Below are positions 7,506 through 29,799 of a stretch of DNA of 64,000 bases, one piece after another. The position numbers and the translations under genes are program-made. The notes beneath the pieces were generated by a model. It did not search any database, was not told where the DNA came from, and worked only from the letters and a program-made list of their open reading frames with translations. This DNA is from a virus (lineage: Duplodnaviria; Caudoviricetes), in IMG/VR virus record IMGVR_UViG_3300032270_001157, positions 22,429 through 86,428 of that record; one strand, written 5' to 3'. The first letter of the stretch is position 1. Every line of letters begins with the position of its first letter.

Positions 7506-7516
7506 AATTTATCCTA

Positions 7517-9193: not shown

Positions 9194-9214
9194 AATTAGT
9201 CCTGTAATTTATTC

Positions 9215-12200: not shown

Positions 12201-13558
12201 ACAGCATTGATACTACCTAATACTAAATTATTACTAACTGTACCACTTAAATTATTAGTATTGCCTACTACAAGAGAACCATTAATATCTCTAAGAACAT
12301 TAGCCTGACCAATTAATAATAGTTGGGATGGCGCACCACTAGCAAGATTATTATTAATACCTAAAAGAATACTTTGATCAAGACCAGAATTAGTAGCGTT
12401 ACCTAGTCCGATAACAATAGACTTGGTAGTATCTTGCAGATTGATATTATTACCAACAAAAATACCACTAGAAATATTAGTGAGTGTTTGATCAGAACCG
12501 ATACAGATTAGCTTGGTGCCGGTAATTACGTCTGAGCTACCATATACTTTATTAGAATTTCCACTTAGACTAACATTAGAACCTACAACACTATTATCGT
12601 TACCAAGTAAACTATTAACATTTCCAATATAAATATTATTGTTGCCAGTATTGCTGACATAAGAACCTAACACAACACCAGAAGCGCCAGAACTCACACC
12701 AACCTGAACTAGTCCAACGCTAGTAGAAGTATTCAGACTATTATTACTTCCTAAAAGAATATTATAATTGCCAGTAATACTACTAGAATTACCAACAAAA
12801 ATATTGGATAATCCACTAAGATTAACCGAATCACCCAAAGCAGTATTATTTGCACCAATTAACCTAGAGTTATTTACTAGAGCAAAAACTTTGGCTCCAT
12901 TAAAATAATTTGAACTACCGATAACGATACCAGTATTAGATATTCCTGTGTTACTTGAACCGATATTTGTTAATCCTACTCCCGTTACAGCATTACTAAC
13001 ACCTACTACTGTATATGTATAGCCGGATACGCTATTACTACCACCAAGAATTACGTTTCTTAAATTAGCACTAAATACAGGCTTATTGGTTCCTTTATCA
13101 TCAACAGTAAATAATATTTCACCACTAGTAGATCCGGTAACAGGATCAAGAATCTTGGACATGATCTGTCCATAAACAACCTCATTATAGTTAGTATCTC
13201 GACCGGCTAAATTAACAATAGCAGGATAACTACCAGAAAGTGGAGTAGTTTGTGGATTATGCACTAGTAATAGAGTTACGCCGGTAGGGCAGTTTGTGAT
13301 ACTCTCTACAATCAAACCATCTTTTGAGCATGGAGCTACAACGTGTAATACAGCATCGGGTAATCCTGTTCCAACTCCTAGTCTACCGGTAGAAGCATCA
13401 AAATATACTAATCCATTGCCGGTGCCACGAATACTAAAATCAATATCTTGTTTAAGAGCATTAAAAGAAGTACTAATACCAGAAGTTTCTGATAATATAA
13501 TTGATGGATTAACACCAGAACCAACATATAGTGTACCAGATACTGTTTGACTACTCAT
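9215..13558 (-). CDS. Tail fibre / trimeric adhesin-like protein with YadA-head-like GxxN repeats, 1447 aa
   Basis: Long runs of short (I/V)GxxN repeats (aa ~170-630), fibre motifs RLGVGTGLPDAVLHV and RVGINTDNPTSDLAVSG, and a strong RBS (AAGGAG, 8 nt spacer). Confidence 0.7.
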   Translation of the reverse strand: MSSQTVSGTLYVGSGVNPSIILSETSGISTSFNALKQDIDFSIRGTGNGLVYFDASTGRLGVGTGLPDAVLHVVAPCSKDGLIVESITNCPTGVTLLLVHNPQTTPLSGSYPAIVNLAGRDTNYNEVVYGQIMSKILDPVTGSTSGEILFTVDDKGTNKPVFSANLRNVILGGSNSVSGYTYTVVGVSNAVTGVGLTNIGSSNTGISNTGIVIGSSNYFNGAKVFALVNNSRLIGANNTALGDSVNLSGLSNIFVGNSSSITGNYNILLGSNNSLNTSTSVGLVQVGVSSGASGVVLGSYVSNTGNNNIYIGNVNSLLGNDNSVVGSNVSLSGNSNKVYGSSDVITGTKLICIGSDQTLTNISSGIFVGNNINLQDTTKSIVIGLGNATNSGLDQSILLGINNNLASGAPSQLLLIGQANVLRDINGSLVVGNTNNLSGTVSNNLVLGSINAVPPTSNNNLVVGILNNQTGVYINSVGAISGNPSRTAGTVNNSIIVGINNLAQSGNSNVILGNKNVASGSNISAIGSYNNLKNASNAYAIGNSNFLVGDQIGTVGSKIAVVGQESMVFNTANTKMDVFGSGNIVVGYNQMVSSGIIIGTANKLNGINNIVYGRENTLGSTRNQCVVDSVGLNITVPTLGITSKYLVGDKILLCVQSPPSVNNTFVREISNVVENSIDNTTTISIGAPVAIDRANGYYSVNNAFDDNNSPNTTIVSGLVMPYQRLGGAGGTETNPIYGSNNIVVGTNNTYLYSSGVIVGYNNNVSGVRNVVIGYNISGLADNTLYMGTNNSNKMILDNDKVVFNSGAVQDNFVVKSSNDATSVLNIGLNSNRVGINTDNPTSDLAVSGLTTTSSLRVGFSAPDAYVLTTNTNGVGTWQLPVRISGTDTGLMYRVNDKVASGISEILYSPSTKQMNFNLGGNNGFYITSTGVFVNDEASTYRLRVRGSGGVEFARVLLDTNFGHQRIDFHNVSGNSGTFNNFTVNSGVNLPPSLTGTFLFVNNSGRLNSAATRANSIIFANENSWATGNTSIRWINSQQTLALGATGIVSYDSLFTNIPDSFYNIILSSTDSIDTVFNNRGLGNKFSVINSGSLNNRIGFHISPTGSVTINASSSDIANSNSSGVVLYANGKAWFKSLKIGEGATASGYYLRTDQFGNLRFSDIDLKTQFSGLYPMNITYTSQGDASFRVDIGLSSKLTDGTNMGANNDGTMLIWRGDAWVSSSGLKVYQNQTIANDPNSVRGIEFGYKPQVTQTRHNHVFAGGSIKASDEKYNGSSQYAQYYLRTRTTDGGQVRPLVTDWTKPAVGSTVVTTETTANCINLSAFSDATSYEYDRVWTYKIDISALWQLGSSSSVNPNATRNGAGIFIEGALIRTASGIRFSKLGTELTRTYGDTMPAGMSIGTQVVDSNPPRLSIVASGAAGYTAIWSATAKINQLNHIGSDPLYLN

Positions 13559-13570: not shown

Positions 13571-16500
13571 TTATGTTCGGAGCACTCCTTCTGTTTGAAT
13601 TGCTAGTTTGTTCATGGCTACATTTACTTCACCTAAGATCATTCTCTGAATAGGCTCTTGCATATTAGCGAATGCTGCTCCTCCATTAATAACAACCTCT
13701 ACCTTGTGTGTGCCTTGAATAGTAATCTGTGGTGGTAAGTTAAGTGCTGCAAGTTGACCAATAAATTTATTGAATGTGTTAGTAAATTGGCTTAATCCAT
13801 CCATATTTGGATTATTTGAGCCAGTATTATTAGATACACTATTTGTGGTACCTGAGGATAGTTGTTTTTGGTAATCGGACAGCATGGAAACTGCTAGTTG
13901 TAGGCTATTTGTGAACTGTTTGGTAGTTTGTGATAGAGATATAAATATTTGACCTAAATTAAACATACTACCACTCCTAACTCCAGGTATTCCTCCTTCG
14001 GATAAATAAGCCATACCACCACGACTCATATGATTGACGCCACCATTTATAGATTGTAGTAATGGTAGATTTTGCTGGGTGGCTTGACGATTAACAACAA
14101 ATTCTCCCGGAGTCAACATTGCTGGGATAGTATCAGTTCCGCGAGGCTGATAGTTAACTAAAGTTCCACGGGAAGCATAAATCATACCACCAGAGCTACG
14201 AAATGCTGGGTTACCAGCTGCTACTTGTGGATATAAAAAGCCTACAGTATTATTAATATTAAAAGGAGCTAATCTAGCAGCATTATCTTCATCACTATTT
14301 TGTGGATTAATATAACCCATCTTAGTTAATTGTTTACTAATATTATTTTTTAGCATGGCTTGTTGGGCTCGGTTCATCCCTTGTCCTCTTGCAGCCATTC
14401 TATCAATACTGCTAAAATTTCTTAATAGCTTAGAAAATGTTTTTTCTTGAGCTTTTTCTAGTTTTTTACGCTCATCCATATTACCTTGAAGATAAGTATC
14501 TCCATTATTAATTCTTAAAGCTAATGCTTCAATTTGATCTGGATTCATTCTTAATATAGCAATATCTCTAGCGCTATATTTGTAATTACCACCAGATGTT
14601 TCCTGACTCATTGCTTGAATTAATGCTTCAGCTTGATCTGGAGTAAATGGATGGAATAAATCTTGTGCGGCCCCTGCTGATAATCCGTACTGAGTTAGTA
14701 GCTTTTCATCTATCTTGTTACTACCGGTTAAATTAAACTTTTTCTTGAGTTTGGATAAAGCCTGTTCTCTCCAACCCATAAAAGCTTCTGGACTAGTAAA
14801 CTTATTGGGGGCTCCCATGCCCACAGCTTGTCCAACTGCTAACTCTAATCTGAATCGTTTAGCATTAGCCCTATTTGATGCTGCAATCTGTGCTTTATTA
14901 GCGTCCTGCTCTTGCTTTTTCCCGTGCATTTTCCACTGTTGATCTCTTTCTCTCATGGGCACATCAACAGCTATCATTCTATTTAATTTAATAATTTCAG
15001 AATTAATCTGGTCTCTTTCTCTAAGCAATCTTTCTTTATCTTTTTTCTGCTCCTCTGTCATATCCGCAGGATCAACAAAAGAGTACTGTTCTAGTTCTAG
15101 TTCTTTGTCTTTTTTCTTCTTGTTTAAAGATTGAGTTTGTTTATTAGGATCAACAGTTTGACCAGACTTTAATTTAACTGGTCCCGGTGTTGCTGGTTGG
15201 TGAACCCATCTATTGGCTTCTCTCTGATTTTCTGCTTGATTTCTGATTCTATTTGCTGTATCTACTTTATTTTTACCCCTTTGAGCAGAAGCTGTGAGGC
15301 CGTAGGTGTCTCCCGGCATTGATGTATCTGTTGCTACAGTAGCAGCGTCAACATCTCTTCCGTCTATTCTAAATACTGAAGAACTAGCTCTGGCTTGAAC
15401 TCTCTGATTTTCTAGTTCTTGTTCTCTTTTTCTCTCTTGAGCAGCTTGTTCGGCTTGTTTTTTCTCTTCTATTTTAGCTATTCTAGCTTCTTCACTCGCT
15501 GCGTGTTGTCTCTCTAAATACTGTTCTTGAGCACTAACCGCTGATTGGAATACCTCATTAGTACTATGTGTATTCCGGCCTTTGACTACTTTTCGATCAC
15601 GCCCAAAAGGTACTGAAATAGTATCTTCACTATTTAAACTATCATAAATATTAGATATCTGTTGATCTATAAATGCTTGTGTCATTAAATTGCCAACAGC
15701 GTCTTTGCGAGGTTTTGCTCCCTTTTGTAATCTTCTGCTTTCTATGTTAAATTCTGCTAATCTTTCAGCATCTCTTCTGTCCATTACATTTAATTTAAAT
15801 TCAGCTAGTGGATCATCAGCACTGCTAGATATAGTACTATTTTTGAGCATTCGGTCAGTATTGTTGTTAGAAGTGTGCATCTTTTTTGCATCACCATACA
15901 ATCCAACAGTTTCTTGTGTCAGCATATTTGCAGAAGCTATTAAGCCTGCTGTTGCTGGATCCAAACCAAATCCCATGTAGTATCCTGTGGTCAAACCTAA
16001 TTGACTAAAATTCCCTAATTGTGTATCCAACATAGTTCCTTGTTGAACACCAGTAGCTCGACCAAGCAGAGAGTGAGCACCAACATCTCCCATAGTTTCC
16101 CCAGTACCTGTAACCACCCCCAGAACAGTATTTACTGCTCTATTTCTACCAGTCTTATTAGGATCAGCCATGGCTCCACTGATAGCTCCAAAAGTTGGAC
16201 CTATTAACCTACCAACATAAGGAGCAGCCATTCTTGCAGCGCCAGAGGCTTGAGTGCCTATGTATTTTAAAGCTGTTGTAGAGGCTGCTCTAGGATTTTT
16301 AATAGCAGAACTAATATTAGAACCAACACTCTTAACTCCTTGATAAAGATTATCTAAGCCATCCATAGTGCTAGTTAGCCATCCTGGAAGTTTGGGACTT
16401 TTATAATTACTAGCCATTTCCAAAGCCCCTTGACTAGAATAAGCTCCTCGTTGACTAGTAGAGTTAATCCAGTTTCGGTAGTTGTCAAGCCATGCTTTTG

Positions 16501-19500
16501 CTCTTGGGTCTGTTGGTGCCATTTCTTCAACTTTTTTAACCTTATTAGCAAAATCAGACATATAATTAGCTATGGTTGAATCCCAAGTATCGGCGAGCGG
16601 ATCCATAGTTCCACCTGATAAATAAACCACTCCACCCTTAGCATAATTACCAGCATTAATACTCTTGAGCAATGGCAGATTGCGCTGAGTAGCTTGTCTA
16701 TTAACTACAAACTCACCCGGAGTTAACATTGCAGGAACAGTATCAGTTCCTCTTGGTTCATAATTTACTAAGGTTCCACCAGCAGCATAAACTGGACCAC
16801 CTTGTGATCTTGTCATAACAGTGCCGGGTCTGGCCAATCCCAAGTTTTGATTATTAGTCTGAGCTCCATTAAAAGCATTGGTTAATTTATCTAAAGCTGA
16901 GATCAAAGCTGTATTAGCAGTATTTAATATTTGACCCTGTTTTTCTAATAATGGATTAATAGCTCTTTGAGTAGCTTCTCCCAATGCCATTTGCTGTTGT
17001 TTGTATAAATTTTCTAGAGCTTTAATTTGTGGGTCTTGTGCTGGAGCGGCCCTTAGATTAGCAAGAATTTCTTTAAGGAAAGGATTATTCTCAACATTAA
17101 GACCTTGAGCCCGAGCAGTATTTTGGATTAAGTCTGCTCTTAAAGTGTTTGCTCTTTGCTTATCTGTAGTGTCTAAACCAGAAACTTGAATCATTTCGTT
17201 GAATAGACTAAAAGAATTTTTAGCATCAGCAGCAAAGGCATCCTGAGCAGCAGCCATAGCCTCTAAATTAGTACCACCATCTTGAATAGTTTTTCTATAA
17301 GCTTGTTGAGCAGATATTGATTGGTTGATAGTGGTGATTTGACCATTTAGTGTTCTATTAAGAAGATCATAGGTGGAATTGAGATTTCTTAATTCTGTGG
17401 GGGTGCTGGTGACTAATTTTTCTCCAAAAGAAGCACCAGCTTGAGTACGACTTTCTCTTTCTTGTACTAGCTGACCAATTTTACTCAGGGTGTCTTGCAT
17501 ATCTTGCTTAATAAGATCTGGTAAACCCTCTAGCCCCTTTTCAGTAGCCTCAATTTGTCTATTTAAACTAGCAAGAGCATCTTTTTGTTTGGCTATAAGA
17601 GAGATTACGGCTGGATCTGCTAAGTTCCCTGAACTATTTAATCTTTCAATATTACCTTCTACAGAACTTCTCTGATTAATGAGCATGGTTCTTTGATTAG
17701 TCAAATTAGCAGCTGTTAAAGAACCGGGCTTAACACCAGCATTTATAGCCGCTTCTGTATATCTGCCTGCTGATCTTTCTGTAAGAGATGTTCTACGTCC
17801 TTCTCCTAAGGCTTCTCTAAGAGATACCATGCTATCTGAAAGATAACCTTGTAAACTAGCAAACTTAGCAGTAGCTTGAGTTTGAAGTTCTGCTGCTTTT
17901 TGAACAGCATTACCATATGTATCTAAAGCTTTTTCGATAAAAGCATATTGTTTCATCATAGTGTCGAAGGCTTTTTTCTGAGAATCAATTAATTGCTTAA
18001 GCCCACCAACACTATCTATTAATGATTGAGGATCTAATACTCCGTCATTTTGTTTAATATTATCTTTAACAGCACCTTTTAATTGATTACGAATAGCATC
18101 AGAGATTCTATTATCTCCAAAAGTATTTATAAGCTGCTGAGTCAAATCTCTTGTAATATTTTCGCCTAATACTTCACCACTAGCTCCGGTCTGTTGTGCT
18201 TGAACAGCAATTCTGGTTATAGTATCTTCAGCCGAAGCACCAAATGTAGATAGTCCCTCCACAAACTTTTTATCTGTACCAAACATGCCGCTGACTTGAC
18301 TAACTGCTGTTTGGCGTTCTCTTGCTGAGTAAGCATTAGGATTCTTTAATATGTCGGTAGATTGAAACTGCGTTTTGAGAGATACTTGACCACTAGCAAT
18401 ATCATCAATTCTTTGACTAGCTCTGTCTAATCCTGTTGTGGCTGAGTCTATAGCCTGATCCATATTCTCAAAAGTTTTAGCTATACTAACAGATGATAGA
18501 TTTAATACTCTGGCAGATTGTTGTAGAGCTGTAACCCGTGCTCTTTCTGCTACCGTAGCTTGTAGTGTTGCTGTTTCTTCTTTAAAGTAGGTATCTATTA
18601 ATTCTTTTTGTCTCTGTTCAATTTCTGCTCTGATTTGTGGATCTTGACCTGCTGTTTTCTTAAGAGCTTCCAATTCTTGATTTTTAGTATTAAACTGCTT
18701 ATTTGTTTGAGCGATATTAAGCTTTGCTAATCCTTGATCTCCACCAAAAGATGATAAAGCTTGCTCAATATTTAGTCCACTTTCAACTTTAGCGGCTAGT
18801 GTTTTTAGAGCTATCTCACCACCAACTTTTTGATTAGCAGTTTCTTCTTCTCCGATTTGTGCATTGGTTGGTCGTGAGGCTTTATAAAAACCAAATGAAG
18901 CAGCTTCTAATCCACGAGTAAGCATACTAGGCTGGCGTAGCTCTGCTTGTTTAGCTGATATTTTTTCTTCTTCAGCAGCAATATCCTTGAAGTTTTTAAC
19001 TATCGAGGAGGTTAGAGCAGCATCTCTTGGATTCTTATTTAGTTTTTCTAACTGACCTTCTGCTGTAGTAGCACTATTTTCTATTTTCTTTTTGCTTAAA
19101 TCAATATCTGCTTCTTTAATAGCATTACGAAAACTATCAACAGCTAGTACAGTACCAGCTATTGCTCCTGCTAATGCTCCCCATGGACCAGCTTGTGCTC
19201 CTACAGCTATAGCTCCACCAAAAGCTGTACCAGCAGCAGCAACACCACGACCTGTGCTGCCCCCGACTGCTGCTCCAGCGGCTTCTGCTGCCATAGGAGC
19301 AGCAAATGCTAATGCTAAACCAGTATTCATATATGAAGCTCTACGATTTCTTTTAGCATCATATTGTGCTCTTTGAGCATCAGACATATTACCAACTTCT
19401 TCATCTGATGGTCCCATAACTTTACTTCTTAAAGAAGAAATGCTGCTACTGATAAAACCAGTAGTTTTAGAAGCAACACTTTGAACAGCTTGGAAGATAG

Positions 19501-22500
19501 TTTGTGTTTGTCGTGATGACTGAGCAACTTGTTGCGATGACTGAGCTGCTCTTTGTAGATTTTGATCAATAATTCTAGCAGAAGCTGCTGCTATATCTGA
19601 TGTGCTATCTCTTCTGGCTCCTTGAGGAAGAGGACCTATTAAAGTAGCATTGGAACGAGCAGTATCTATCCTATTTTGAATATAGCTATCTGTAGCTACT
19701 TTTTGGCTATTCTGAGCATTTTGTCTAGCTTCTTGAAATCCCATTCCTTTAGATCTATTGAAATTTAAAGCTTGTTGGTAAATTGCGTCCCCAAACTGCT
19801 CTATTTCCATCATTACTTTTTGTATTCTAGCTTCAACATCTCCTGGATTTGCTGATCCACCTACATTAAATCTTTGTATTCCACGAACAGCACCACCAGA
19901 ACGAAAGCCTAAAGCCTTTGTTGCAGCTTCACGAATAATGAAACTACCTACTGGTAACGATACTGGTCCAATACTATCACTAGTTCCTGATCCCGGACCC
20001 TTAAAAACACCAATACCTCCAGCAGAGAACGAACTCATTCCATTACGATCTGCTTGATTCATTTCTCTTAATTTGCCATATCCTATTGCTTTTGCTGTCT
20101 CTGGTGGAACAAAAGCTTCTCCATTAGAAACCATAGCTGGAACATTTCCACCCGCTGCATATCCTCGCATTTTCTTGAAAGATTTTTGATCACTGTTAAT
20201 CTCGTAATCTCTAACAGTGCGACCATCTTTCTTTGCATAGTCTGCAATTCTATTTTGTTTATTTATTATTGCTGCTCCAACTTTTTCTTGAATAGCAGAA
20301 GGCGGAGCTTTGTATGGTTTTAAAGAAACAGGCATAGGAATTGATCCTTCACCAAATCCTCCTACTTTCCACTGCTCTCCATAACCACCGGGAACAGGAA
20401 TTTGTTCCATAAACTGAGCTTCAGTTAAACCAGCCTTAATAATATCTTCTAGACTATACTTAAATCCTCCTCTTTGAATTAATTTTGGAGTTCCTCCTTC
20501 AGCAAACCTTTGAATAGCTCCACCACTCTTATATCCTTGAGTTTTTAGATAAGTAATAATATTATCTTCTACTGTTGATGGTCCACTAATAGTTCTTTTT
20601 GCGTCTGTTGCTATATTGCCTGGAATACCAAAATATTTAGCTGCCCCTTTTAATCCCTGTGGAAAGTCCATTCCTTGACCCTTAAGCGCTCCTGGCCCAC
20701 CGAGTTTCTGAATCATTTTTTCAAACAACACACCCTGAGCCGTAGCTTCTGCATTAGAATTGCCTGAGATTTTCCTATTTCCATAACGATATGCTTGTAT
20801 GCCTTCTTTGGATCTTGCTCTTGCAGCTTTAATATTTCTAGCATCATCATCAACAAATAATGAGCCTGGACTTAATAACGCTGCTTTAAGTTTAGCTATT
20901 TGAGATCCAGATACTCCTGGTCCTCCTAGTCCCTTAAATTGGGTAAGGGGGATTGGAAGTCCCTTGCTAGACAACCATTCTTGAACTAAGTCTAGGGTTG
21001 AAGCAGGTCGTGCTGTTATGAGTTTTAGATTGCTTAATAGCTCTGGTTTTTTAGATACGAGACCAGCTAATTCTTGTCCTAATGCGCTTAATTTGGCGCC
21101 CCTTAGTGCGGCCGATACCTTGTTTCTATCTCCAAACTCAGCAAACTTGGGAGTTCTTGGGTCAGATAAAATCTTGTCGGCACCGAAGGCTAATGTTCTA
21201 TCAAAGTCTAGATTTAATTCTTTGCCAAGACCAGTTTTAGCTAGAATATCAGCAATCATAACCTTTTTAGCGGCTCTTCCTGCACTTTTATTAAGGGAAG
21301 AATTAAAGGATTCTTCTATAGAACTAGCTACCGCAGGATCCATTATGCCACTAACAATTCTAACATCAACAGGAGCTTTAAGCTGATCAGAAGTGATTTT
21401 TTTATTGATTGGAGAGAATGGAGACCCTAACATACCAGCCGCCCCGAATAATAATCCCTTAGACGTTATTCTGGTTGTTCTGGCTTGTTGCGCTCCAGAT
21501 AATCTATTTTGTTTTTTGGTGAATTCTGCTAGAATAGCTGCTTTACTTGCTGCTTGGGCTTCTGTTGGAGCGCGCTTATTTAATGTAGTATATACATCTG
21601 TTGCACTAATACCTCCAGCCTTAGCAGCTGTTTCTAGACCTAATAATTTAATGATTTCACTAGTTGTTGCTTTTTTACCAGATGTTGGGGTTACTACGCC
21701 AGCATCCGCAAATTTAGAAATTGATCCGCCACTAGCAAGATATTTTCTCATTTCTTGTGTGGTCTTTTTTCTACCAGCTACATTCTCTAATTTATAAACA
21801 CTTTTTTCTTCAAACCCCTTAATTAAATTAGTTGCATCTGCTTTACTTAAAACATTTTTAATACTTTTTGATAACAGACCGGGCATAATCTTGCTGACAT
21901 CATTAGCATCTGTATCATAAAATGTTGGATATGACGCAACAGAGTTTGCTAGTTCTTGTTGAATAGCAGGATAGTTATTGTTTAATAATTGTTGAGCTAT
22001 TGATGAGGACTGCCCTGTGAATCGATATTTTTTACCACCAGACTTTAATGTTTTAAATACATCCTTAGATCTAATATAAGAAGCAAGTTTACTACTCAAA
22101 ACTCCTTGTAAATCTGGTGCCTTAGCCCAATTGCTGTTCCATGACTGTGGTAAATCTAAACCCATATTTGAATATATGCCAGCAACGGATAATTGTTTTT
22201 TCTGTAAATACTTTTTCAGTTTAGGAGAAAAAGAGTCTGGTTCCAGTCTAGCGTCTAAATGAGTAAAATGAGTAGCTGATGATGTTGGGAGTTCTTGTTT
22301 TTTCTTTGCTGCTTTCCCTGCTCCAGCCCTGTTTAAATCATAAAGTCTGTTGAGCCCAATATTACGAACAGCCTTTTTGTTCATAACAAACTCTCCCGGC
22401 GTTAACATTGCCGGAACAACATCTCCGTCTCCATAACCCGGAACATGACCACCAGAAGCAAAGGCTCTAATTGGTCCACCTTGACTATTTCTATTGGGTC

Positions 22501-24043
22501 TCATTCCACCAATAAATCCTCTACTAAACTGACCTAGTGCAGATAATCCTCTTAATGCGAAAATAGCTCCTAAAGCTGGTAGTGCTCCTTTAGCAGCATC
22601 TGTGAGTCTAATTAAATTACTAGTTAAGTCTAAAGATAGTTTAACGAAGGATTGAAATCCAGAGCTTTGTCCAATAGATCGAACTAAACCTACAAATTCA
22701 TTTCTTACTTTTGCCATTTGAACAGCTAATGATTGTTGTGCTGTTGCGGCATCAGTAGCTAAAGAGTCTTGTCCTGTTTGAGCAACTTTTAATGCTGCTT
22801 GGGCAGTTGCGAACTGTTGAATTAATGGAATCACCTTACCAATCTGACGAAAGCCACCAAGTTCTTCTACGATTCTGGAGAACTTTAAATCTCTGGGGTC
22901 TAATTGAGATAATCCTTCGCTCAATCTTCTAACAGCCTCATATGGTCCAACGAACTTACCTTGTAAATCTGTTAATGTAACACCATATTCTTTAAGGGCA
23001 TCGATTGTATCCCCTCTTTGAATTCTGGTAAAAATTGTTCTTAAACCAGTAGCAATGGTTTCGGCGCTTTCACGAGTTGTAGCACGAACACTGGTGAACA
23101 CAGCCATGAATTCATTTAGGGCTTGAGTACCTTCACTAACTCCCTTACTAGCTGTAGCAAACACACCACCGGTACGCTGAATAGCAGTAATAATGTCACC
23201 GGCTTCAACAGCAAACTTAGCAGCTACCGCATTTACTGAACCTAATGCTCGATCTAATTCGCCAGCACTAATACCGAACTGTCTCATCAATGCGATACTA
23301 CCTTCTACGGTACTATTCAAGTTATCGAATGATGGAGCTAATGCACTAAGAGCCAAAGCTTTTAATGCCTTCTCTGTATCTCTAGCACTTAAGCCAGCCT
23401 GAGCCAATGTACTAGATACTTTAATTAATTCATTAGATGACACACCGAACTTAGTAGATAAATCAGTAATTTCGGCAACTAATCCACCAAGATTTTTAAC
23501 TGATGTATCAGTAACCTGAGATACTCTAACCAATTCTTGATTAAAAGCAATAAAGTCTGTTGTTGCAGATGTTAGGGCGTTAGATACTTTATAAATCACT
23601 CCTGTTACTGTGGCAAAGGCGGCAAATCTACGAACAGCCAATGCTGACTGCTGACCAAACTCTCTAAATGCTGAAGTAGTCCCATGAACAGCAGCAGTAG
23701 CAGCAGCATTTTGTTGAGTTACATTTTGTGTGGCATTATTTATTTGTTGTAAATTAGCTGGTAAATTACCAGCACTATTATTAACTTGTTGTATAGCAGT
23801 CCCAAGATTTCTCAGAGATATTGCTGTAGCGTTTGCTGAAGCATTAGTGGCCTGTAGAGTATTATTAAAAGCTCTAAAAGTTTGATTAAGAGCACCGATA
23901 TTGCGGGCCACACCGGGATCCAAGCGAACATTAACATTAGCATTAATAGTTCCTAGTTGTCGCCTAATATCGGCAACAATAGTCCTAATGTTAGATGGTC
24001 CTCGTAAATTTAACTCAGCTGTAAGATTAAAACCTCTAGCCAT
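13571..24043 (-). CDS. Tail tape measure protein (TP901-type core) with inserted cargo domains, 3490 aa
   Basis: Ala/Gln-rich helical N-terminus with a TP901-like core (FNQELVRVSQVT..DLSTKFGVSSNEL..LAQAGLSA), a hydrophobic Gly/Ala segment at ~19140-19330, repeated PAMLTPGEFV motifs typical of TMP C-terminal regions, and a position downstream of the tail tube and chaperone genes. Confidence 0.92.
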   Translation of the reverse strand: MARGFNLTAELNLRGPSNIRTIVADIRRQLGTINANVNVRLDPGVARNIGALNQTFRAFNNTLQATNASANATAISLRNLGTAIQQVNNSAGNLPANLQQINNATQNVTQQNAAATAAVHGTTSAFREFGQQSALAVRRFAAFATVTGVIYKVSNALTSATTDFIAFNQELVRVSQVTDTSVKNLGGLVAEITDLSTKFGVSSNELIKVSSTLAQAGLSARDTEKALKALALSALAPSFDNLNSTVEGSIALMRQFGISAGELDRALGSVNAVAAKFAVEAGDIITAIQRTGGVFATASKGVSEGTQALNEFMAVFTSVRATTRESAETIATGLRTIFTRIQRGDTIDALKEYGVTLTDLQGKFVGPYEAVRRLSEGLSQLDPRDLKFSRIVEELGGFRQIGKVIPLIQQFATAQAALKVAQTGQDSLATDAATAQQSLAVQMAKVRNEFVGLVRSIGQSSGFQSFVKLSLDLTSNLIRLTDAAKGALPALGAIFALRGLSALGQFSRGFIGGMRPNRNSQGGPIRAFASGGHVPGYGDGDVVPAMLTPGEFVMNKKAVRNIGLNRLYDLNRAGAGKAAKKKQELPTSSATHFTHLDARLEPDSFSPKLKKYLQKKQLSVAGIYSNMGLDLPQSWNSNWAKAPDLQGVLSSKLASYIRSKDVFKTLKSGGKKYRFTGQSSSIAQQLLNNNYPAIQQELANSVASYPTFYDTDANDVSKIMPGLLSKSIKNVLSKADATNLIKGFEEKSVYKLENVAGRKKTTQEMRKYLASGGSISKFADAGVVTPTSGKKATTSEIIKLLGLETAAKAGGISATDVYTTLNKRAPTEAQAASKAAILAEFTKKQNRLSGAQQARTTRITSKGLLFGAAGMLGSPFSPINKKITSDQLKAPVDVRIVSGIMDPAVASSIEESFNSSLNKSAGRAAKKVMIADILAKTGLGKELNLDFDRTLAFGADKILSDPRTPKFAEFGDRNKVSAALRGAKLSALGQELAGLVSKKPELLSNLKLITARPASTLDLVQEWLSSKGLPIPLTQFKGLGGPGVSGSQIAKLKAALLSPGSLFVDDDARNIKAARARSKEGIQAYRYGNRKISGNSNAEATAQGVLFEKMIQKLGGPGALKGQGMDFPQGLKGAAKYFGIPGNIATDAKRTISGPSTVEDNIITYLKTQGYKSGGAIQRFAEGGTPKLIQRGGFKYSLEDIIKAGLTEAQFMEQIPVPGGYGEQWKVGGFGEGSIPMPVSLKPYKAPPSAIQEKVGAAIINKQNRIADYAKKDGRTVRDYEINSDQKSFKKMRGYAAGGNVPAMVSNGEAFVPPETAKAIGYGKLREMNQADRNGMSSFSAGGIGVFKGPGSGTSDSIGPVSLPVGSFIIREAATKALGFRSGGAVRGIQRFNVGGSANPGDVEARIQKVMMEIEQFGDAIYQQALNFNRSKGMGFQEARQNAQNSQKVATDSYIQNRIDTARSNATLIGPLPQGARRDSTSDIAAASARIIDQNLQRAAQSSQQVAQSSRQTQTIFQAVQSVASKTTGFISSSISSLRSKVMGPSDEEVGNMSDAQRAQYDAKRNRRASYMNTGLALAFAAPMAAEAAGAAVGGSTGRGVAAAGTAFGGAIAVGAQAGPWGALAGAIAGTVLAVDSFRNAIKEADIDLSKKKIENSATTAEGQLEKLNKNPRDAALTSSIVKNFKDIAAEEEKISAKQAELRQPSMLTRGLEAASFGFYKASRPTNAQIGEEETANQKVGGEIALKTLAAKVESGLNIEQALSSFGGDQGLAKLNIAQTNKQFNTKNQELEALKKTAGQDPQIRAEIEQRQKELIDTYFKEETATLQATVAERARVTALQQSARVLNLSSVSIAKTFENMDQAIDSATTGLDRASQRIDDIASGQVSLKTQFQSTDILKNPNAYSARERQTAVSQVSGMFGTDKKFVEGLSTFGASAEDTITRIAVQAQQTGASGEVLGENITRDLTQQLINTFGDNRISDAIRNQLKGAVKDNIKQNDGVLDPQSLIDSVGGLKQLIDSQKKAFDTMMKQYAFIEKALDTYGNAVQKAAELQTQATAKFASLQGYLSDSMVSLREALGEGRRTSLTERSAGRYTEAAINAGVKPGSLTAANLTNQRTMLINQRSSVEGNIERLNSSGNLADPAVISLIAKQKDALASLNRQIEATEKGLEGLPDLIKQDMQDTLSKIGQLVQERESRTQAGASFGEKLVTSTPTELRNLNSTYDLLNRTLNGQITTINQSISAQQAYRKTIQDGGTNLEAMAAAQDAFAADAKNSFSLFNEMIQVSGLDTTDKQRANTLRADLIQNTARAQGLNVENNPFLKEILANLRAAPAQDPQIKALENLYKQQQMALGEATQRAINPLLEKQGQILNTANTALISALDKLTNAFNGAQTNNQNLGLARPGTVMTRSQGGPVYAAGGTLVNYEPRGTDTVPAMLTPGEFVVNRQATQRNLPLLKSINAGNYAKGGVVYLSGGTMDPLADTWDSTIANYMSDFANKVKKVEEMAPTDPRAKAWLDNYRNWINSTSQRGAYSSQGALEMASNYKSPKLPGWLTSTMDGLDNLYQGVKSVGSNISSAIKNPRAASTTALKYIGTQASGAARMAAPYVGRLIGPTFGAISGAMADPNKTGRNRAVNTVLGVVTGTGETMGDVGAHSLLGRATGVQQGTMLDTQLGNFSQLGLTTGYYMGFGLDPATAGLIASANMLTQETVGLYGDAKKMHTSNNNTDRMLKNSTISSSADDPLAEFKLNVMDRRDAERLAEFNIESRRLQKGAKPRKDAVGNLMTQAFIDQQISNIYDSLNSEDTISVPFGRDRKVVKGRNTHSTNEVFQSAVSAQEQYLERQHAASEEARIAKIEEKKQAEQAAQERKREQELENQRVQARASSSVFRIDGRDVDAATVATDTSMPGDTYGLTASAQRGKNKVDTANRIRNQAENQREANRWVHQPATPGPVKLKSGQTVDPNKQTQSLNKKKKDKELELEQYSFVDPADMTEEQKKDKERLLRERDQINSEIIKLNRMIAVDVPMRERDQQWKMHGKKQEQDANKAQIAASNRANAKRFRLELAVGQAVGMGAPNKFTSPEAFMGWREQALSKLKKKFNLTGSNKIDEKLLTQYGLSAGAAQDLFHPFTPDQAEALIQAMSQETSGGNYKYSARDIAILRMNPDQIEALALRINNGDTYLQGNMDERKKLEKAQEKTFSKLLRNFSSIDRMAARGQGMNRAQQAMLKNNISKQLTKMGYINPQNSDEDNAARLAPFNINNTVGFLYPQVAAGNPAFRSSGGMIYASRGTLVNYQPRGTDTIPAMLTPGEFVVNRQATQQNLPLLQSINGGVNHMSRGGMAYLSEGGIPGVRSGSMFNLGQIFISLSQTTKQFTNSLQLAVSMLSDYQKQLSSGTTNSVSNNTGSNNPNMDGLSQFTNTFNKFIGQLAALNLPPQITIQGTHKVEVVINGGAAFANMQEPIQRMILGEVNVAMNKLAIQTEGVLRT
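20530..20760 (-). other. Putative PD-(D/E)xK restriction-endonuclease-fold domain embedded in the TMP
   Basis: Pattern GVLFEKMI...MDFP...TDAKRT matches the E..D..(D/E)xK arrangement of REase-fold toxin domains. Confidence 0.5.
20780..21225 (-). other. HAD-superfamily phosphatase domain embedded in the TMP
   Basis: All four HAD motifs occur in order: motif I LDFDRTL (DxDxT), motif II LITARP, motif III Lys (KLK), motif IV LFVDDDARNI. Confidence 0.8.
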
Positions 24044-24127: not shown

Positions 24128-24991
24128 TCAGGTAGGAGTCTCTGGGGCTGATGGAGTTGGTGTTGTTTCATCTTGTTTAGTTTCTTCTTTATTGCTTTCT
24201 AATACAACGGGCTTTCCTTCTTCGTCCAAAAATGGCTGTGCTTCAACTACATAGTCACCTTCTAGATCTACCCTATTGCCGAACTTATCAACAAAGTTAC
24301 CCTGCTCATCAATGAAACGATTATTCTCATCGATCAACCTACCTTCTGCATCAACCAAACGACCCTGCTTATCAACAAGCCTTAGTTTATCATCAACAAA
24401 TTTATACTTCTGTAAAAACTTGTTTTCTGGTAAAGTTTTCTCAAAATTATTATCCAATCCATAAATTATGTTAGCCAATTTTTGAGCACCGAGCAAAGCT
24501 ACTGGATCATCTGCTTTGTTCAAATACTCTTCCAAACTCTTAAAATAAGGCTCATTAGTATCTTTATACACCACACAAACAGATACTAAATAATTAAACC
24601 TAGCATTATCAGCTTGACCTTCGGCACTATGATTATCTAGAGATGTACGAACACTAATTAGGTCTCTTATTTCAGCCCTAATTTCTTTCATCTTTAAAGC
24701 AAGGTCTTTAGCATCCTTTAGACCGAAACCACCCTTAGCTAATCTTTTTTCTCCGTCTAATAGTTCTTGTTGCAGGTCAGAGAACTTCTTCTGCTTTTCT
24801 CTATTCCATAATCCTTGTTCTTCTAAGAGATCATCCATCTTGGCTCTAACCACAGACTTGCTCTTAATAGCGTCTGTGAAGGCTTGGTTATAAGTCTTCT
24901 GAGCTTCTCTCTGATCATTTAAAGAGGGTGAACGAACAAGGAAATGCTTCTCTACATTATCAACAACCACACTAAAGGTATCAGTTTTCAT
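24128..24991 (-). CDS. Putative tail assembly chaperone, 287 aa
   Basis: Directly upstream of the TMP, highly charged and helical, with a C-terminal 7-aa VDxxGxx repeat tract. Confidence 0.55.
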   Translation of the reverse strand: MKTDTFSVVVDNVEKHFLVRSPSLNDQREAQKTYNQAFTDAIKSKSVVRAKMDDLLEEQGLWNREKQKKFSDLQQELLDGEKRLAKGGFGLKDAKDLALKMKEIRAEIRDLISVRTSLDNHSAEGQADNARFNYLVSVCVVYKDTNEPYFKSLEEYLNKADDPVALLGAQKLANIIYGLDNNFEKTLPENKFLQKYKFVDDKLRLVDKQGRLVDAEGRLIDENNRFIDEQGNFVDKFGNRVDLEGDYVVEAQPFLDEEGKPVVLESNKEETKQDETTPTPSAPETPT

Positions 24992-24992
24992 A

Positions 24993-25286
24993 TTAATTGT
25001 CCTTTTTAATTACCGGAAATGAATAGCTATATTGTGTCTTAAATACTCCACCGTACTTATAGAAGTCTTCTTTGATATTTCTAATCTGAGTATTGCCATG
25101 ATTTAAAATTTGATTGCGAGTATAATCCCACATATCTGCAAACTCTTCTTCTTTTTCTGTGAGATCTCCATCTTTATCGTGGCCCCACAAAAAACCAAAA
25201 TTTTCCTCCATACGAGCTAATGCTCCAATCATGGTTGTTTGAATTCTTTTTTCCATATAAAATCTAAGTCTCTCTGGATCGTACAT
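24993..25286 (-). CDS. Hypothetical protein (tail chaperone region), 97 aa
   Basis: Tightly packed ORF with a 1-nt gap to the next gene; acidic/aromatic composition. Confidence 0.7.
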   Translation of the reverse strand: MYDPERLRFYMEKRIQTTMIGALARMEENFGFLWGHDKDGDLTEKEEEFADMWDYTRNQILNHGNTQIRNIKEDFYKYGGVFKTQYSYSFPVIKKDN

Positions 25287-25290
25287 AAAA

Positions 25291-26331
25291 CTATTCCTTA
25301 TTATTTAATTGTTGCATTATCCTTTGTTTAACATCTGGCAATTGAGCATCCGGAATCCTCGTCCCTATATTTGAGTTTGTTACAAAGTCCACCTTTTGTT
25401 TAAGAGTAGACAAACCCAGTTCGTTATTAAGTCCAATTATATCGTCTGCTTGTTCTTTATTTCCTGCCATCAAAAATACTTCTGAAGCATTCTTCAATTT
25501 ACCTGTCAGTATATTTTCTACACCCTTTTCCTTTTTTTGTCTATCATTTTCTTGTTTATGAAATAACATCCAACCATCTAGAGCATCATCATCATTAATA
25601 ATATCTTGTGGAGGACATTCAGGATGTTCATATATTCTATCATACATATATGAAATATTTATCAAGCTTTTTTGTTCTTCAGACCATTCTTTAACACAAT
25701 CATCTAATATGTTACTTTTATTATTATTCCAATAATTTCTCCAGTATTCACTTCTGGCGATACTCTTAAATGTTACTACATCTATCATGTTTTGAGAGAT
25801 ATGAGAAGCTAAACTATTGAAAGTATTATAGTTAATATTAGTATTATCAAAAATTAAATTGTTTGTATCATACTCATATAAAGTATTACTAATTAAAAAT
25901 TCATTTTTAATATTATCACAATAATGTTCTAAAGTAATATAATCTAAGCAATGTTGTTTTTGTAAAAATTGATCAATTTCTTTTTTTAGATCTTTAATTT
26001 TACTTTGAATTTTCTTTTTTTTAGTATTATCGAAATACTGTTGATATAATAAAATTTTATTAGACTCTAAGCTTTTTTCTATTTTAGCTACTATTTTTTT
26101 ATAGTCCCACGGCAAGAGCTGCAAATCAAATAATAGATTTTCAATATCTTCTAGAAACCAAAAATCGCTATATAGATTATCATTATAAGCAGAAGAGTAA
26201 AGAATATCTGCTTGGAGCTTTAAAGATAAAGAAGGTTTCCTAAGCTCATAAATAACATCGTCATAAACAAAAACTTGCTTACCAGATAAAATCCTATGAA
26301 CTAGTATCTCATTTTTTCTAGATTCATTCAC
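25291..26331 (-). CDS. Hypothetical protein, possible tail assembly chaperone, 346 aa
   Basis: GTG start overlaps the upstream TGA (GTGA coupling). Lies between the tube gene and the TMP. Confidence 0.65.
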   Translation of the reverse strand: MNESRKNEILVHRILSGKQVFVYDDVIYELRKPSLSLKLQADILYSSAYNDNLYSDFWFLEDIENLLFDLQLLPWDYKKIVAKIEKSLESNKILLYQQYFDNTKKKKIQSKIKDLKKEIDQFLQKQHCLDYITLEHYCDNIKNEFLISNTLYEYDTNNLIFDNTNINYNTFNSLASHISQNMIDVVTFKSIARSEYWRNYWNNNKSNILDDCVKEWSEEQKSLINISYMYDRIYEHPECPPQDIINDDDALDGWMLFHKQENDRQKKEKGVENILTGKLKNASEVFLMAGNKEQADDIIGLNNELGLSTLKQKVDFVTNSNIGTRIPDAQLPDVKQRIMQQLNNKE

Positions 26332-26480
26332 ATTGATTGTTCTTGAGAAATAATAGAAGCTTGTAATTTAGAGATGTCTTTTTCTCTATCTTCTAATTTT
26401 TTTTGTAAATTTTCTATTATTTTTTGACTTTGCAACAAATCTAAATACAACTTACCGATTGTTGAAAAAATTTCATCCAT
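26328..26480 (-). CDS. Small coiled-coil protein, 50 aa (MDEIFSTIGKLYLDLLQSQKIIENLQKKLEDREKDISKLQASIISQEQSM)
   Basis: Below the track cutoff and translated manually. RBS GAGGA 5 nt upstream of ATG 26480; its TGA overlaps the GTG of the next gene; it fills the gap after the tube gene. Confidence 0.7.
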   Translation of the reverse strand: MDEIFSTIGKLYLDLLQSQKIIENLQKKLEDREKDISKLQASIISQEQSM

Positions 26481-26534
26481 AATAGTCCTCGAACCATGTT
26501 CTTTTGATATAAATTTACTCTAGCAACTGTGTTA

Positions 26535-27590
26535 TTAGTAGTCAGTACCAATAACTGGTAGACCAGCTTCAATAACATCTGCAAAGTTTTGGCCAATACC
26601 GCCAGTGGGTGGAGTATAGGTAAAATCACTATAAGTTTGATAGCTATAAGTGATTGTAGCATTACCACCGTCTGTACCACCACCAGCATAGCTAACTGAC
26701 TGGAGCTTGTTTTTAGTTCCAAGATCAAGTCTAGTACCATCGCATAATGCAATAAGAATCTTTTTATTACTAAGAGCCTTAGGATTACTGCAATTAGCAT
26801 TACTTGAACCTTCGACACCAACCATATCGCCAGTATTAGCAGTTACTTCAATTTCGGTTGAAATTTCAACTGGGAATTTGATATAACGATAGAAAGGTGT
26901 TCTACTACCTAGCTCACGAATTTGTTCACGACCAAGATTCATGCTAACCTTAACACTATTAATCTTAATACCGGCTGGAATTCCTCCAGAAACTGATCGA
27001 ACATTTACGTCTCCAGTAGTTCCGGTTGGAAGAACAGTAAGAGCTTGACTCCATAAACCACGACGCAAAATACCAACACCCGATGGGCTGTCGGCAACAG
27101 GAGCGCTAGCAGTTGAAGTTAGTGAAGTAGCCCATGTTTTATCATTACTAACTATTGTAACTTCTTCTGTAAAATTGCCGTCTGTTGGGAAATTATAGCT
27201 TACAGAAGATAAATAAGAAGGTGTGCATTCTACTACAGCAGCGGGAACTCCAGTAGCATTAGTATTGGTGTCAGGATATAGAAGTAATTTAACACCACAA
27301 CGATTGTTAGCTAAGTCAGCTAAATTACCACTACCCATAGCCATTTGATAGATTGTGGGAAAACCGTCTAGAACCTTATTGAGAGTAATTTCAACTTCTG
27401 GAATTTCTTCATAGTTGTCATAAAGAGATAATTGACCAAGTTGATATACTGGCTCAAGATTGAAATTAGTATTCATGCCTACACTTTGTAGACCTTGTAC
27501 GGAGTCATAATCAGGATTTTTAACGCCCTTGGTTCCTGATGGACCAGCTAATTGAACAGATTGGCAGGCATAATAAATACGATTGGCCAT
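26535..27590 (-). CDS. Major tail tube protein, 351 aa
   Basis: Tube-like beta motifs (VQGLQSVGMNTNFNLEPVYQLGQLSLYD..PEVEITLNKVLDG; LGREQIRELG), strong RBS GGAGA, and canonical position between the terminator-like gene and the chaperones/TMP. Confidence 0.75.
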   Translation of the reverse strand: MANRIYYACQSVQLAGPSGTKGVKNPDYDSVQGLQSVGMNTNFNLEPVYQLGQLSLYDNYEEIPEVEITLNKVLDGFPTIYQMAMGSGNLADLANNRCGVKLLLYPDTNTNATGVPAAVVECTPSYLSSVSYNFPTDGNFTEEVTIVSNDKTWATSLTSTASAPVADSPSGVGILRRGLWSQALTVLPTGTTGDVNVRSVSGGIPAGIKINSVKVSMNLGREQIRELGSRTPFYRYIKFPVEISTEIEVTANTGDMVGVEGSSNANCSNPKALSNKKILIALCDGTRLDLGTKNKLQSVSYAGGGTDGGNATITYSYQTYSDFTYTPPTGGIGQNFADVIEAGLPVIGTDY

Positions 27591-27612
27591 GAGGGTGTCT
27601 CCATTAATTTGG

Positions 27613-28575
27613 CTAAATGATAACTTCAGTCGTTAATCTTAAAGTACACCAATATAAATTTTTATTTCTGCTTTCCATGTCTAAAATTGATACTTCTTTC
27701 AAATAACACCTTTTCCATCTGTACGATGGATTAAGGACTAAATCGCAATAATTTTTACCATTATTATTGATAGAACCCTGGTAATTTAATGGATTTACTC
27801 CGCTGTTTATTACCTTTTGGATATCATATAGCCATAAAGTTTTTTGTTTTTGCAAGCGTATAATATCGGCTATTTTATTTTTGTCAGAAGAGTTTTCTGC
27901 AAAAACATGCAATAATATATCCTGATTAACAGCAAAATCATGAGCACCCATTTGCCAAGGTTGAGAATAACTGCTAGCAATTGGTTCAATAACTACGCAG
28001 GGCATTTGAATTCTGTGATTAGAAGATATTGCATAATCACCTTTATCCTTTTGATTAATAGCTGGTGCTGGGCTATAGGTCATACTCTGTAGTTCCACCC
28101 AATAAGGATCCGTACTACTTTTGTATGTTTGACACCACCTATAAGAATATTCAAGTTTAACAGCCGATCCAGCTGCTAAGGGTTTATCGAATACTACTTG
28201 TCCAAGAGGATAATTTATACGATAACCAATAGACCCACTACCAGTTGGAGATGGATAAAAAGTAGTACCAATACTAACTCCAGAAATGCGTGTTGGTTGA
28301 GTACCATTAAATGCAACACCTGTTTCCCAAACCCAATCCTTTTTGGGACTCTGCCATATTTGACCCTTAGCAAAGCCGGGTTGTTCTGAGATTTTTAATT
28401 CATGGAATGAGCCACCATACAAACCACTAGTTGGAATTTTTACATTAACAAAACCACCTATATTTAGAAAGCCCCAGTCTAAAAATCCTTTTAAGTTTTC
28501 TTCTAGTTCGTTTAATAAGGTATTACCACCCAATGAGGTAATTGTATTAAATTTTGTATAGTCTTCACAACTCAT
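27613..28575 (-). CDS. Putative tail completion/terminator protein, 320 aa
   Basis: Directly upstream of the tube gene. C-terminal MPCVVIEP..QDILLHVFAENSSDKNKIADII resembles tail-terminator folds, with an inserted beta domain (INYPLGQVVFDKP). Confidence 0.5.
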   Translation of the reverse strand: MSCEDYTKFNTITSLGGNTLLNELEENLKGFLDWGFLNIGGFVNVKIPTSGLYGGSFHELKISEQPGFAKGQIWQSPKKDWVWETGVAFNGTQPTRISGVSIGTTFYPSPTGSGSIGYRINYPLGQVVFDKPLAAGSAVKLEYSYRWCQTYKSSTDPYWVELQSMTYSPAPAINQKDKGDYAISSNHRIQMPCVVIEPIASSYSQPWQMGAHDFAVNQDILLHVFAENSSDKNKIADIIRLQKQKTLWLYDIQKVINSGVNPLNYQGSINNNGKNYCDLVLNPSYRWKRCYLKEVSILDMESRNKNLYWCTLRLTTEVII

Positions 28576-29219
28576 ATATTTTTCTCAATTTCTGTTTGTA
28601 TCATAGTTGGTATTTTATTATCGTCTAATTTATCTAGAGCTCTAGTTACCCAGTTATTATTTTGTGTACCAGCAAATTCAGGAGGAACTCTCCAGTTTTC
28701 TTTTGATGGTTTCATGATAGCTAATCCAGTTCTAGAATATGGATTAGGACCAACCTGTACAGTATAGTTTTTTACAATAATTTTATTACCGTATAACAAT
28801 AGCCACTCTAGCCATGGTAGTACAGCTTTACTTAAGCCGTCAAATACTAGAGCACTATCGCTAGTTAAAACATCCTCATAATTAGATTGAATCATTCCAA
28901 TATTGAATCCACCCTTTAATCCAGATCCACTCAGTGTAATTGGGGTTACATTTACTATTACATTATTAGTCCATATATTTACTATCTCATTTACCTTTTG
29001 GGCAGCTTCGGGAATTCCAAATTCATATCTGAGCTTGCCAGTTAATAAAGACTGATATTCTGGTTCAGAGACTATGGCTTTGTAAATTTCAGCTGGTATA
29101 GTTTTGGCTAGAACCATACGAGCTTTATAAAAAGCGGTCTGTAGGTGGTCTTTAATGCTATCTAGGACCATTTGTTTGATTGCTGACTCAGATTCTAATA
29201 GTCTTAATGAGAATTGCAT
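28572..29219 (-). CDS. Putative neck / HK97-gp10-like tail-completion protein, ~215 aa
   Basis: Sits between the head-closure-like and terminator-like genes and has a PWLEWLLLYG / NWVTRAL pattern. ATG at 29219 is preferred because it lies 2 nt after the upstream stop. Confidence 0.45.
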   Translation of the reverse strand: MQFSLRLLESESAIKQMVLDSIKDHLQTAFYKARMVLAKTIPAEIYKAIVSEPEYQSLLTGKLRYEFGIPEAAQKVNEIVNIWTNNVIVNVTPITLSGSGLKGGFNIGMIQSNYEDVLTSDSALVFDGLSKAVLPWLEWLLLYGNKIIVKNYTVQVGPNPYSRTGLAIMKPSKENWRVPPEFAGTQNNNWVTRALDKLDDNKIPTMIQTEIEKNI

Positions 29220-29221
29220 TG

Positions 29222-29755: not shown

Positions 29756-29799
29756 TTTAATTATCCTCAAAGTAAAAATACTAATGTAAAATACACATT

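Follow-up and report, generated by a model that had tools for sequence, protein, structure and literature searches.

A predicted HAD phosphatase domain carried as an optional cassette in a giant phage tape measure protein

Tape measure proteins fill the lumen of the phage tail and leave it at infection, and muralytic domains occur in those of mycobacteriophage TM4, of T5 (Pb2) and of the TP901-1/SPbeta-type phages. Here we describe a giant tape measure protein with a predicted HAD phosphatase domain in its interior, encoded in a 64,000-nucleotide stretch of viral DNA (positions 22,429 to 86,428 of IMG/VR record IMGVR_UViG_3300032270_001157; hereafter the window, with coordinates counted from its first letter). 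Like the muralytic tape measures, it combines a scaffold with a functional domain that would leave the tail on ejection, whereas those known from phages hydrolyse the cell wall. In the Sle1 family (PMC13277306), exchangeable functional domains sit on a platform resembling a tape measure; Sle1 is a modular effector of an actinobacterial contractile injection system that is derived from a tape measure and is not a phage protein. Polyvalent proteins, in turn, are giant multidomain virion-associated proteins that carry several "early-phase" enzymatic activities in one polypeptide and share the themes of delimiters and processing (PMC5512222). Their scaffolds are packaged in the head (MuF, portal-associated, N4 vRNAP), in contrast to the tail ruler considered here, and phosphatases and tape measures go unmentioned in the survey that describes them (Iyer, Burroughs, Anand, de Souza and Aravind 2017; PMC5512222).

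Two characterised phage phosphatases bear comparison with the domain itself. The T5 gene for the deoxynucleoside-5′-monophosphatase Dmp is a pre-early, first-step-transfer gene, and its product belongs, like the proposed tape measure phosphatase, to the very first phase of infection; Dmp comes from translation of the first-entering DNA, whereas the tape measure domain would arrive as protein. The motifs of Dmp read DLDGT / TAR / K / DD, against DFDRT / TAR / K / DD in the window, with 63 and 64 amino acids (aa), respectively, between motifs I and II, and the C-terminal extension of the 244-aa T5 enzyme is absent from the window's domain. T4 Pnkp (PseT) is a phage enzyme for nucleic-acid phosphomonoesters, in which Asp165 is the nucleophile and Asp167 the acid-base residue, with further roles for Ser211, Lys258 and Asp278 (Mg) (PMC3592404). 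Its C-terminal 3′-phosphatase (5uj0, 1ltq; phrog_505, phrog_415) has the same DxDxT acylphosphatase fold, and the two share the pattern D-x-D-x-T-L-A / [ST]-[GA]-R / K / h-h-D-D, which in T4 is DVDGT / SGR / K / DD. T4 Pnkp is a soluble early enzyme, whereas the window's HAD forms part of a protein of the virion tail, with no fused 5′-kinase and no ligase partner found; the motif I–II spacing of T4 Pnkp is shorter (46 aa), and the similarity between the two is too weak for HMMER.

The class B (AphA) and class C (e(P4)-type) acid phosphatases align structurally with Z scores of 10.3–10.6 over ~149 residues, the cap region among them; their Foldseek E-values are the best, and their motif I–II spacing resembles that of the window's HAD. 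These are secreted or periplasmic bacterial enzymes, whereas motif IV in the window has the adjacent DD of the phage enzymes, and no sequence-level link between the window's copy and class B or C acid phosphatases was found.

The tape measure protein and its HAD domain

The longest minus-strand open reading frame (ORF) of the window is intact, encodes 3,490 aa and is a tail tape measure protein (Table 1). It matched phrog_28, "tail length tape measure protein", with an E-value of 9e-24 and also phrog_167, which has the same annotation, and its N-terminal core showed 21–27% identity to proteins annotated as tape measures in cultured phages of Rhodococcus, Enterocloster and Bacillus; an SPbeta-type match to the core bears the annotation "lytic transglycosylase". 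The N-terminal 520 aa had 1,972 giant relatives, several of them named "TP901 family phage tail tape measure protein" by JGI. Among these, the 120 best were 62–97% identical across the N-terminal 520–580 aa, and the order of genes for 346-aa, ~100-aa and ~290-aa proteins followed by the tape measure was kept in relatives.

A HAD phosphatase had been predicted from the letters of the window at 20780-21225, which corresponds to aa 940–1088, with four catalytic motifs at about aa 940–1090. We confirmed all four in frame, beginning at aa 945, 1009, 1053 and 1063, and the residues D946/D948/T950, T1010, K1053 and D1065/D1066 follow the HAD order of DxDx[TV], S/T, K and an acidic pair. Taken alone, such a motif string is of moderate rarity only: 27 of 2,000 residue shuffles of the tape measure matched a loose regular expression for the four motifs, and about 0.8 occurrences of DxDx[TV] are expected by chance.

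Conservation was more telling than the motif string. An exhaustive phmmer search returned 83 clusters (50% identity level) with the HAD segment, nearly all of them proteins of 1,900–7,900 aa, in which the domain was 28–89% identical to that of the window. For motif I, D946, D948 and T950 were each kept in 81 of the 83 clusters and the Phe between the two aspartates in 80; for motif II, Thr or Ser at 1010 and the following Ala were each present in 82, and R1012 in every one. Within motif IV, D1065 was found in 82 clusters, D1066 in all 83 and N1070 in 70, with Thr instead in 12. With catalytic positions 97–100% conserved against a mean column identity of 42–50%, the motif residues appear to be under strong purifying selection, and the aspartates named in the original prediction are indeed conserved among homologues. 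Because every DxDxT catalytic residue is kept under such selection, the domain is very probably an active Mg-dependent phosphomonoesterase.

Structure prediction agreed with this assignment. An AlphaFold (AF2) model built on a 31-sequence alignment of homologues reached a mean predicted local distance difference test (pLDDT) score of 78.5, with values above 90 for model residues 20–167, the Rossmann-like HAD core; a single-sequence AlphaFold model (pLDDT 46, all-helical) was dropped. The listed Foldseek matches in PDB, to rank 50, were HAD-fold proteins, including AphA (E 7.6e-5), the T4 Pnkp phosphatase 5uj0 (template modelling score 0.62) and Lem4 (E 2.2e-4). VIA-align ranked the T4 Pnkp 3′-phosphatase first (5uj0_B; Z 11.1, root-mean-square deviation 3.1, 125 of 142 residues), followed by AphA (10.6) and class C acid phosphatases (10.4), both within one Z unit of it, and by Pnkp1 (9.9), and many of the matches in BFVD were viral PNKP-phosphatase-domain proteins, which dominated among viral structures. 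As modelled, aa 940–1100 form a genuine HAD (DxDxT acylphosphatase) fold, so that the fold expected in the original prediction was borne out; conserved motif residues and a confidently predicted fold together place the HAD identity beyond chance.

Placement among phosphatases and candidate substrates

Curated HAD models (Pfam clan, NCBIfam) left 27 of 28 tape measure copies unmatched, and searches of the window's copy against PHROG (including phrog_415 and phrog_505) and Pfam (PF25109) gave nothing at E ≤ 1. When the family alignment was used as a profile against PDB, the HADs 7ef6 (E 0.077) and 3cnh (E 0.13) appeared below threshold with motifs I and IV aligned. Stand-alone relatives were easier to place. 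One of them, P0085, is a free-standing 187-aa ORF on another viral contig, 28% identical to the window's HAD. Its family comprises over 340 proteins of ~165 aa, some of which JGI names "acid phosphatase class B"; of 21 stand-alone HADs tested, 19 matched PF00702 and 15 Acid_PPase (MDP-1-like), and some matched Acid_phosphat_B or HAD_PNKP. Aligned with hhalign, a profile of tape measure copies only (A5) and a profile of stand-alone HADs (A4) matched with 98% probability (E 1.7e-13), with all four motifs aligned. The model phrog_415 matched T5 Dmp, a full-length member, at 3.6e-57, the T4 Pnkp phosphatase at 8e-25 and P0085 at 3.1e-12, and it matched tape measure HADs of relatives weakly (3.4e-5, 0.012 and 0.37), while another tape measure relative matched phrog_2643, "5′-3′ deoxyribonucleotidase", at 8.4e-5.

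The T4 Pnkp 3′-phosphatase/nucleotidase branch is thereby the best-supported neighbourhood of the window's HAD. Judged by sequence, the window's copy is a demonstrable member of neither the T4 Pnkp nor the T5 Dmp family, and the best explanation is a subfamily related to the T4 Pnkp 3′-phosphatase/T5 Dmp group that current Pfam, NCBIfam and PHROG models appear to miss. A likeness to this branch, part of the original prediction, held insofar as T4 Pnkp gave the top VIA-align score and relatives reach phrog_415, and did not hold as an exclusive one, class B and C acid phosphatases being tied with it. The contigs that encode stand-alone HADs reach 187 kb; there the HAD genes (L045:6001-6501 and L003:1917-2477) have many small ORFs around them, with PhoH and Kyano_Gp96-type genes close by. 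Such neighbourhoods look like the early regions of T4-like cyanophage-type viruses, and a place amid early-type small ORFs is consistent with an early intracellular role. Since the characterised kin are T5 Dmp and T4 Pnkp, the adjoining module described below is nuclease-like and the stand-alone kin are early-type, we favour a nucleotide or nucleic-acid phosphate as the substrate class, with a little more assurance than an even chance would give.

The same neighbours suggest other substrates. A phosphatase that works outside the cytoplasm as the phage penetrates, in the cell wall or the periplasm, might for example act on periplasmic nucleotides or on phosphorylated components of the envelope. 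This would suit the presence of periplasmic AphA (Z 10.6) and class C enzymes (Z 10.4) among the tied top neighbours and the class B acid phosphatase name given to some stand-alone relatives, and the enzymatic domains so far documented in tape measures act, to our knowledge, on the cell wall. The adjacent DD and the T-A-R, however, match T4 Pnkp and T5 Dmp, phage enzymes of the cytoplasm (T-A-R in T5 Dmp), the sequence links lead to phrog_415 and a deoxyribonucleotidase PHROG, and the stand-alone relatives are small phage proteins amid early-type genes; HADs are, moreover, monoesterases, for which the envelope presents no obvious barrier to cleave. We consider an envelope role unlikely.

A delivered phosphatase could instead dephosphorylate host proteins, for example blunting kinase-based abortive-infection signalling. 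The HAD domain of the Legionella effector Lem4 stood among the top Foldseek matches (E 2.2e-4), the Acid_PPase (MDP-1-like) match was found in 15 of the 21 stand-alone relatives, and the small cap seen in the secondary structure of the model would leave the active site accessible to macromolecules. Lem4 nevertheless ranked below T4 Pnkp and AphA and did not appear in the top 50 VIA-align rows, the PHROG links lead to enzymes of nucleotides and polynucleotides, and the signature of the adjoining module is nuclease-like rather than protein-binding, which leaves protein substrates with little probability.

Healing of RNA in the manner of T4, with an injected 3′-phosphatase preparing tRNA or other RNA cut by an anticodon nuclease for re-ligation, was suggested by the best single structural match, the T4 Pnkp 3′-phosphatase (Z 11.1), by the RNA-repair phosphatase Pnkp1 (Z 9.9) and by the DxDxT / [ST]-x-R / K / DD pattern common to T4 Pnkp, an enzyme that takes 2′,3′-cyclic, 3′- and 2′-phosphates off RNA (PMC3592404). 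Yet the tape measure has no P-loop (Walker A) kinase motif, and we found no AAA_33 kinase (PF13671), RNA_ligase (PF09414) or RtcB (PF01139) in this record and four relatives, two of them complete at 230 kb (the additional PF09511 search had no positive control), so that no kinase or ligase partner was found in five records. A lone 3′-phosphatase would produce 3′-OH/5′-OH ends, which neither type of ligase seals, and would strip the 3′-phosphate required by the host RtcB. Because a kinase or RNA ligase partner was not found, T4-style tRNA repair is very unlikely here, and the healing of PrrC-type tRNA cuts, offered as an example in the original prediction, is weakened.

An optional cassette and its surroundings

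A presence/absence survey of homologous tape measures found the HAD in 27 of the 120 closest, and on a tree of the N-terminal region its distribution required at least 14 gains or losses, compared with 21–26 when labels were shuffled. Optional presence is what a non-catalytic spacer or pseudo-enzyme adding length or a folding unit might show, but catalytic positions 97–100% conserved at 28–89% overall identity, with variable surrounding positions, make a purely structural part scarcely credible.

Two comparisons define how the domain is carried. The tape measure P0087 was 92% identical to that of the window over aa 1–581 (95% over the 520-aa search region), and unrelated sequence replaced aa 582–1295. 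Viewed on the DNA, P0087 carries ~770 unrelated residues in place of window 20156-22297 (aa 583–1296) and realigns from aa 1296. Because P0087 is closely similar upstream, unrelated within and then realigned, aa 583–1296 appear to be a hypervariable "cargo" region. BLAST against the HAD-less P0090 aligned window aa 758–939 with P0090 aa 737–931 and window aa 1101–1212 with P0090 aa 933–1063; the insert boundaries at window aa 939 and 1101 thus correspond to P0090 aa 931 and 933, and since these flanks are contiguous in P0090, aa 940–1100 are a clean insertion. No flanking direct repeats were found in the DNA around the HAD insert in the window.

The flanks are themselves modules, which we term U (upstream) and C (downstream). 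With hidden Markov models (HMMs) of the flanks, the gap from U to C measured 150–169 aa in the HAD-bearing tape measures tabulated and 15–34 aa in six HAD-less ones. Module U was present in 94 of 100 HAD-bearing tape measures, and a PDB profile search with it gave no match. Module C was detected in 140 of 193 tape measures examined, 44 of the 140 having no HAD, and its signature residues were kept in most of these (E1108 in 132, D1126 in 140, D/E1147 in 134 and K1149 in 117), in the order found in PD-(D/E)xK nucleases. In the AF2 model, folded without module U, module C had a pLDDT of 40–65; the best ESM Atlas score was 0.81, with no family, and a PDB profile search gave no lead. The unit of U plus C is commoner than the HAD itself.

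The U-HAD-C block is bracketed by two recurrent GG..F..GG delimiters. By these alignments the HAD is an optional in-frame cassette nested between U and C, an arrangement that goes beyond what the original prediction described.

Elsewhere in the tape measure, a PAMLTPGEFV-containing unit occurs three times, phrog_35029 (function not annotated) matches three stretches, and paired GG..F..GG delimiters recur along the protein. The source record is an 86-kb viral contig with 35% G+C and a CheckV completeness of 58%. A PHROG search with the ten proteins flanking the tape measure (2055-13558 and 24128-29806, minus strand) matched none of them, and the phage belongs to a very poorly charted lineage. 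Searches with tblastn and megablast against 50,697 GenBank phages matched neither the HAD domain nor the tape measure gene, a GTDB genome scan found no prophage copies, and a search for tRNA genes across the window found none. The structural region includes a second giant ORF of 4,034 aa, probably a fibre or adhesin, with sub-threshold Cadherin and YadA-head matches. Two fibre-like proteins both have Laminin_G_3 domains, and one of them also has Mtd_N, the N-terminal domain of the major tropism determinant (E 2e-13); diversity-generating retroelements usually target proteins of the Mtd type. Two adjacent paralogous ORFs gave sub-threshold Vgb_lyase (beta-propeller) matches, and a family-2 glycosyltransferase is encoded among the structural genes.

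Table 1. Coordinates of the tape measure gene, its domains and motifs, and other features of the window
Feature	Position in window	Strand	Basis or remark
Tape measure protein ORF	13571..24043	-	PF10145, phrog_28 and phrog_167 matches
PhageMin_Tail (PF10145) core, aa 191-384	22892..23473	-	E 1.2e-24; 87.7 bits vs cut-off 33.2
Opening delimiter SGG, aa 771	21725-21733	-	counterpart of closing SGG
Upstream module U, aa ~754-939	21227..21784	-	local HMM; starts right after GG..F..GG delimiter
HAD phosphatase insert (predicted), aa 940-1100	20744..21226	-	BLAST boundaries vs HAD-less P0090; AF2 model; fold matches
Motif I, D946-F-D948-R-T950 (LDFDRTL from aa 945, 21191-21211)	21194..21208	-	predicted nucleophile and acid/base Asp
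Motif II, T1010-A-R1012 (ITAR from aa 1009, 21008-21019)	21008..21016	-	conservation
Motif III, K1053	20885..20887	-	conservation, 83/83
Motif IV, D1065-D1066-D-A-R-N1070 (FVDDDARNI from aa 1063, 20831-20857)	20834..20851	-	conservation
Downstream module C, aa ~1097-1170	20534..20755	-	E1108 .. D1126 .. D1147-x-K1149 signature
Closing delimiter YKSGG..RFAEGG, SGG aa 1173-1175	20519..20527	-	end of U-HAD-C cassette
PAMLTPGEFV-containing unit, aa 544	22385-22414	-	
PAMLTPGEFV-containing unit, aa 2437	16706-16735	-	
PAMLTPGEFV-containing unit, aa 3307	14096-14125	-	
Fibre-like protein	30741-33200	-	Laminin_G_3
Second giant ORF	34760-46864	-	probable fibre or adhesin
Paralogous ORF	52513-53622	-	Vgb_lyase, sub-threshold
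Paralogous ORF	53626-54780	-	Vgb_lyase, sub-threshold
Fibre-like protein	55718-57709	-	Laminin_G_3; Mtd_N
Family-2 glycosyltransferase	57785-58645	-	

Proposed delivery and role

The best explanation as a whole, to which we give somewhat more credence than doubt, is that the tape measure carries a catalytically intact Mg-dependent HAD phosphomonoesterase that is directed at nucleotides or nucleic acids and delivered by the tail. As part of the tape measure, the HAD would be built into the tail and, preceding the DNA, would pass with the tape measure into the envelope or cytoplasm of the host. Because tape measures are expelled at infection, the phosphatase would reach the host before phage transcription, and the phage would have it in place before any of its genes is expressed. 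Retention in the virion and delivery into the host, for which the behaviour of other tape measures is our guide, seem on balance probable. Candidate substrates are dNMP/NMP (deoxynucleoside and nucleoside monophosphates), as for T5 Dmp, or 3′-phosphate ends of nucleic acids, as for T4 Pnkp, and the HAD may act together with the adjoining module C.

Several observations count against this interpretation. Sequence searches of Pfam, NCBIfam, PHROG and PDB with aa 901–1120 gave the window's copy no meaningful match, the PDB matches being haemoglobins at E ~1. Against the single T4 Pnkp sequence, hhalign reached 21% probability with motif I alone aligned, and against the single T5 Dmp sequence 1.3% (A5) and 4.1% (A4). 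The structural scores of T4 Pnkp, AphA and the class C enzymes are tied, which leaves the branch unseparated; AphA and the class C group are phosphatases of the periplasm without narrow specificity, and Lem4 acts on phosphotyrosine in proteins. Module C is nuclease-like by its signature, and its modelled fold is of low confidence. The GG delimiters around the cassette could be processing sites, and three folded ~160-aa domains abreast exceed, by our estimate, the ~4-nm lumen of the tail tube, in which case the HAD would have to travel unfolded or staggered.

The last two points are also those that suit a polyprotein cut at its GG delimiters during tail assembly, whose phosphatase would act late or in assembly, or be discarded, and would not be delivered: the U-HAD-C block lies between recurring delimiters, the tape measures of lambda and T5 undergo proteolytic processing, and folded globular domains fit the tail tube poorly. 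The cassette lies in the middle of the protein, however, so that its excision would split the ruler, and cassettes stay in frame in hundreds of giant tape measures. We judge such a fate improbable and retain delivery by the tail as the preferred interpretation.

A bolder extension, which we regard as doubtful, is that giant tape measures of this uncultured lineage are programmable injection scaffolds and that U-HAD-C is a nuclease of PD-(D/E)xK type with a nested dNMP phosphatase or 3′-phosphatase, a pre-assembled "cut and dephosphorylate" unit. If true, the unit would be expelled ahead of the genome to degrade host or competitor nucleic acid and make the products unusable, as a protein-borne counterpart of the T5 pre-early A1 and Dmp programme that is swapped among phages in frame.

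A full-text literature search turned up no description of a tape measure with a phosphatase, HAD or otherwise. Tape measures with an embedded enzyme and early effectors delivered by the virion are both already known, the nearest concepts being the muralytic tape measure domains and the Sle1 effector. If the phosphatase is active, the role of the tail ruler would extend to delivering intracellular-type enzymes before phage gene expression, and phages would have a novel means of taking over the host or countering its defences. The domain, nested beside a nuclease-like module, comes and goes among hundreds of tape measures of 2,000–7,800 aa, and it also offers a natural system for learning how folded cargo passes the tail tube.

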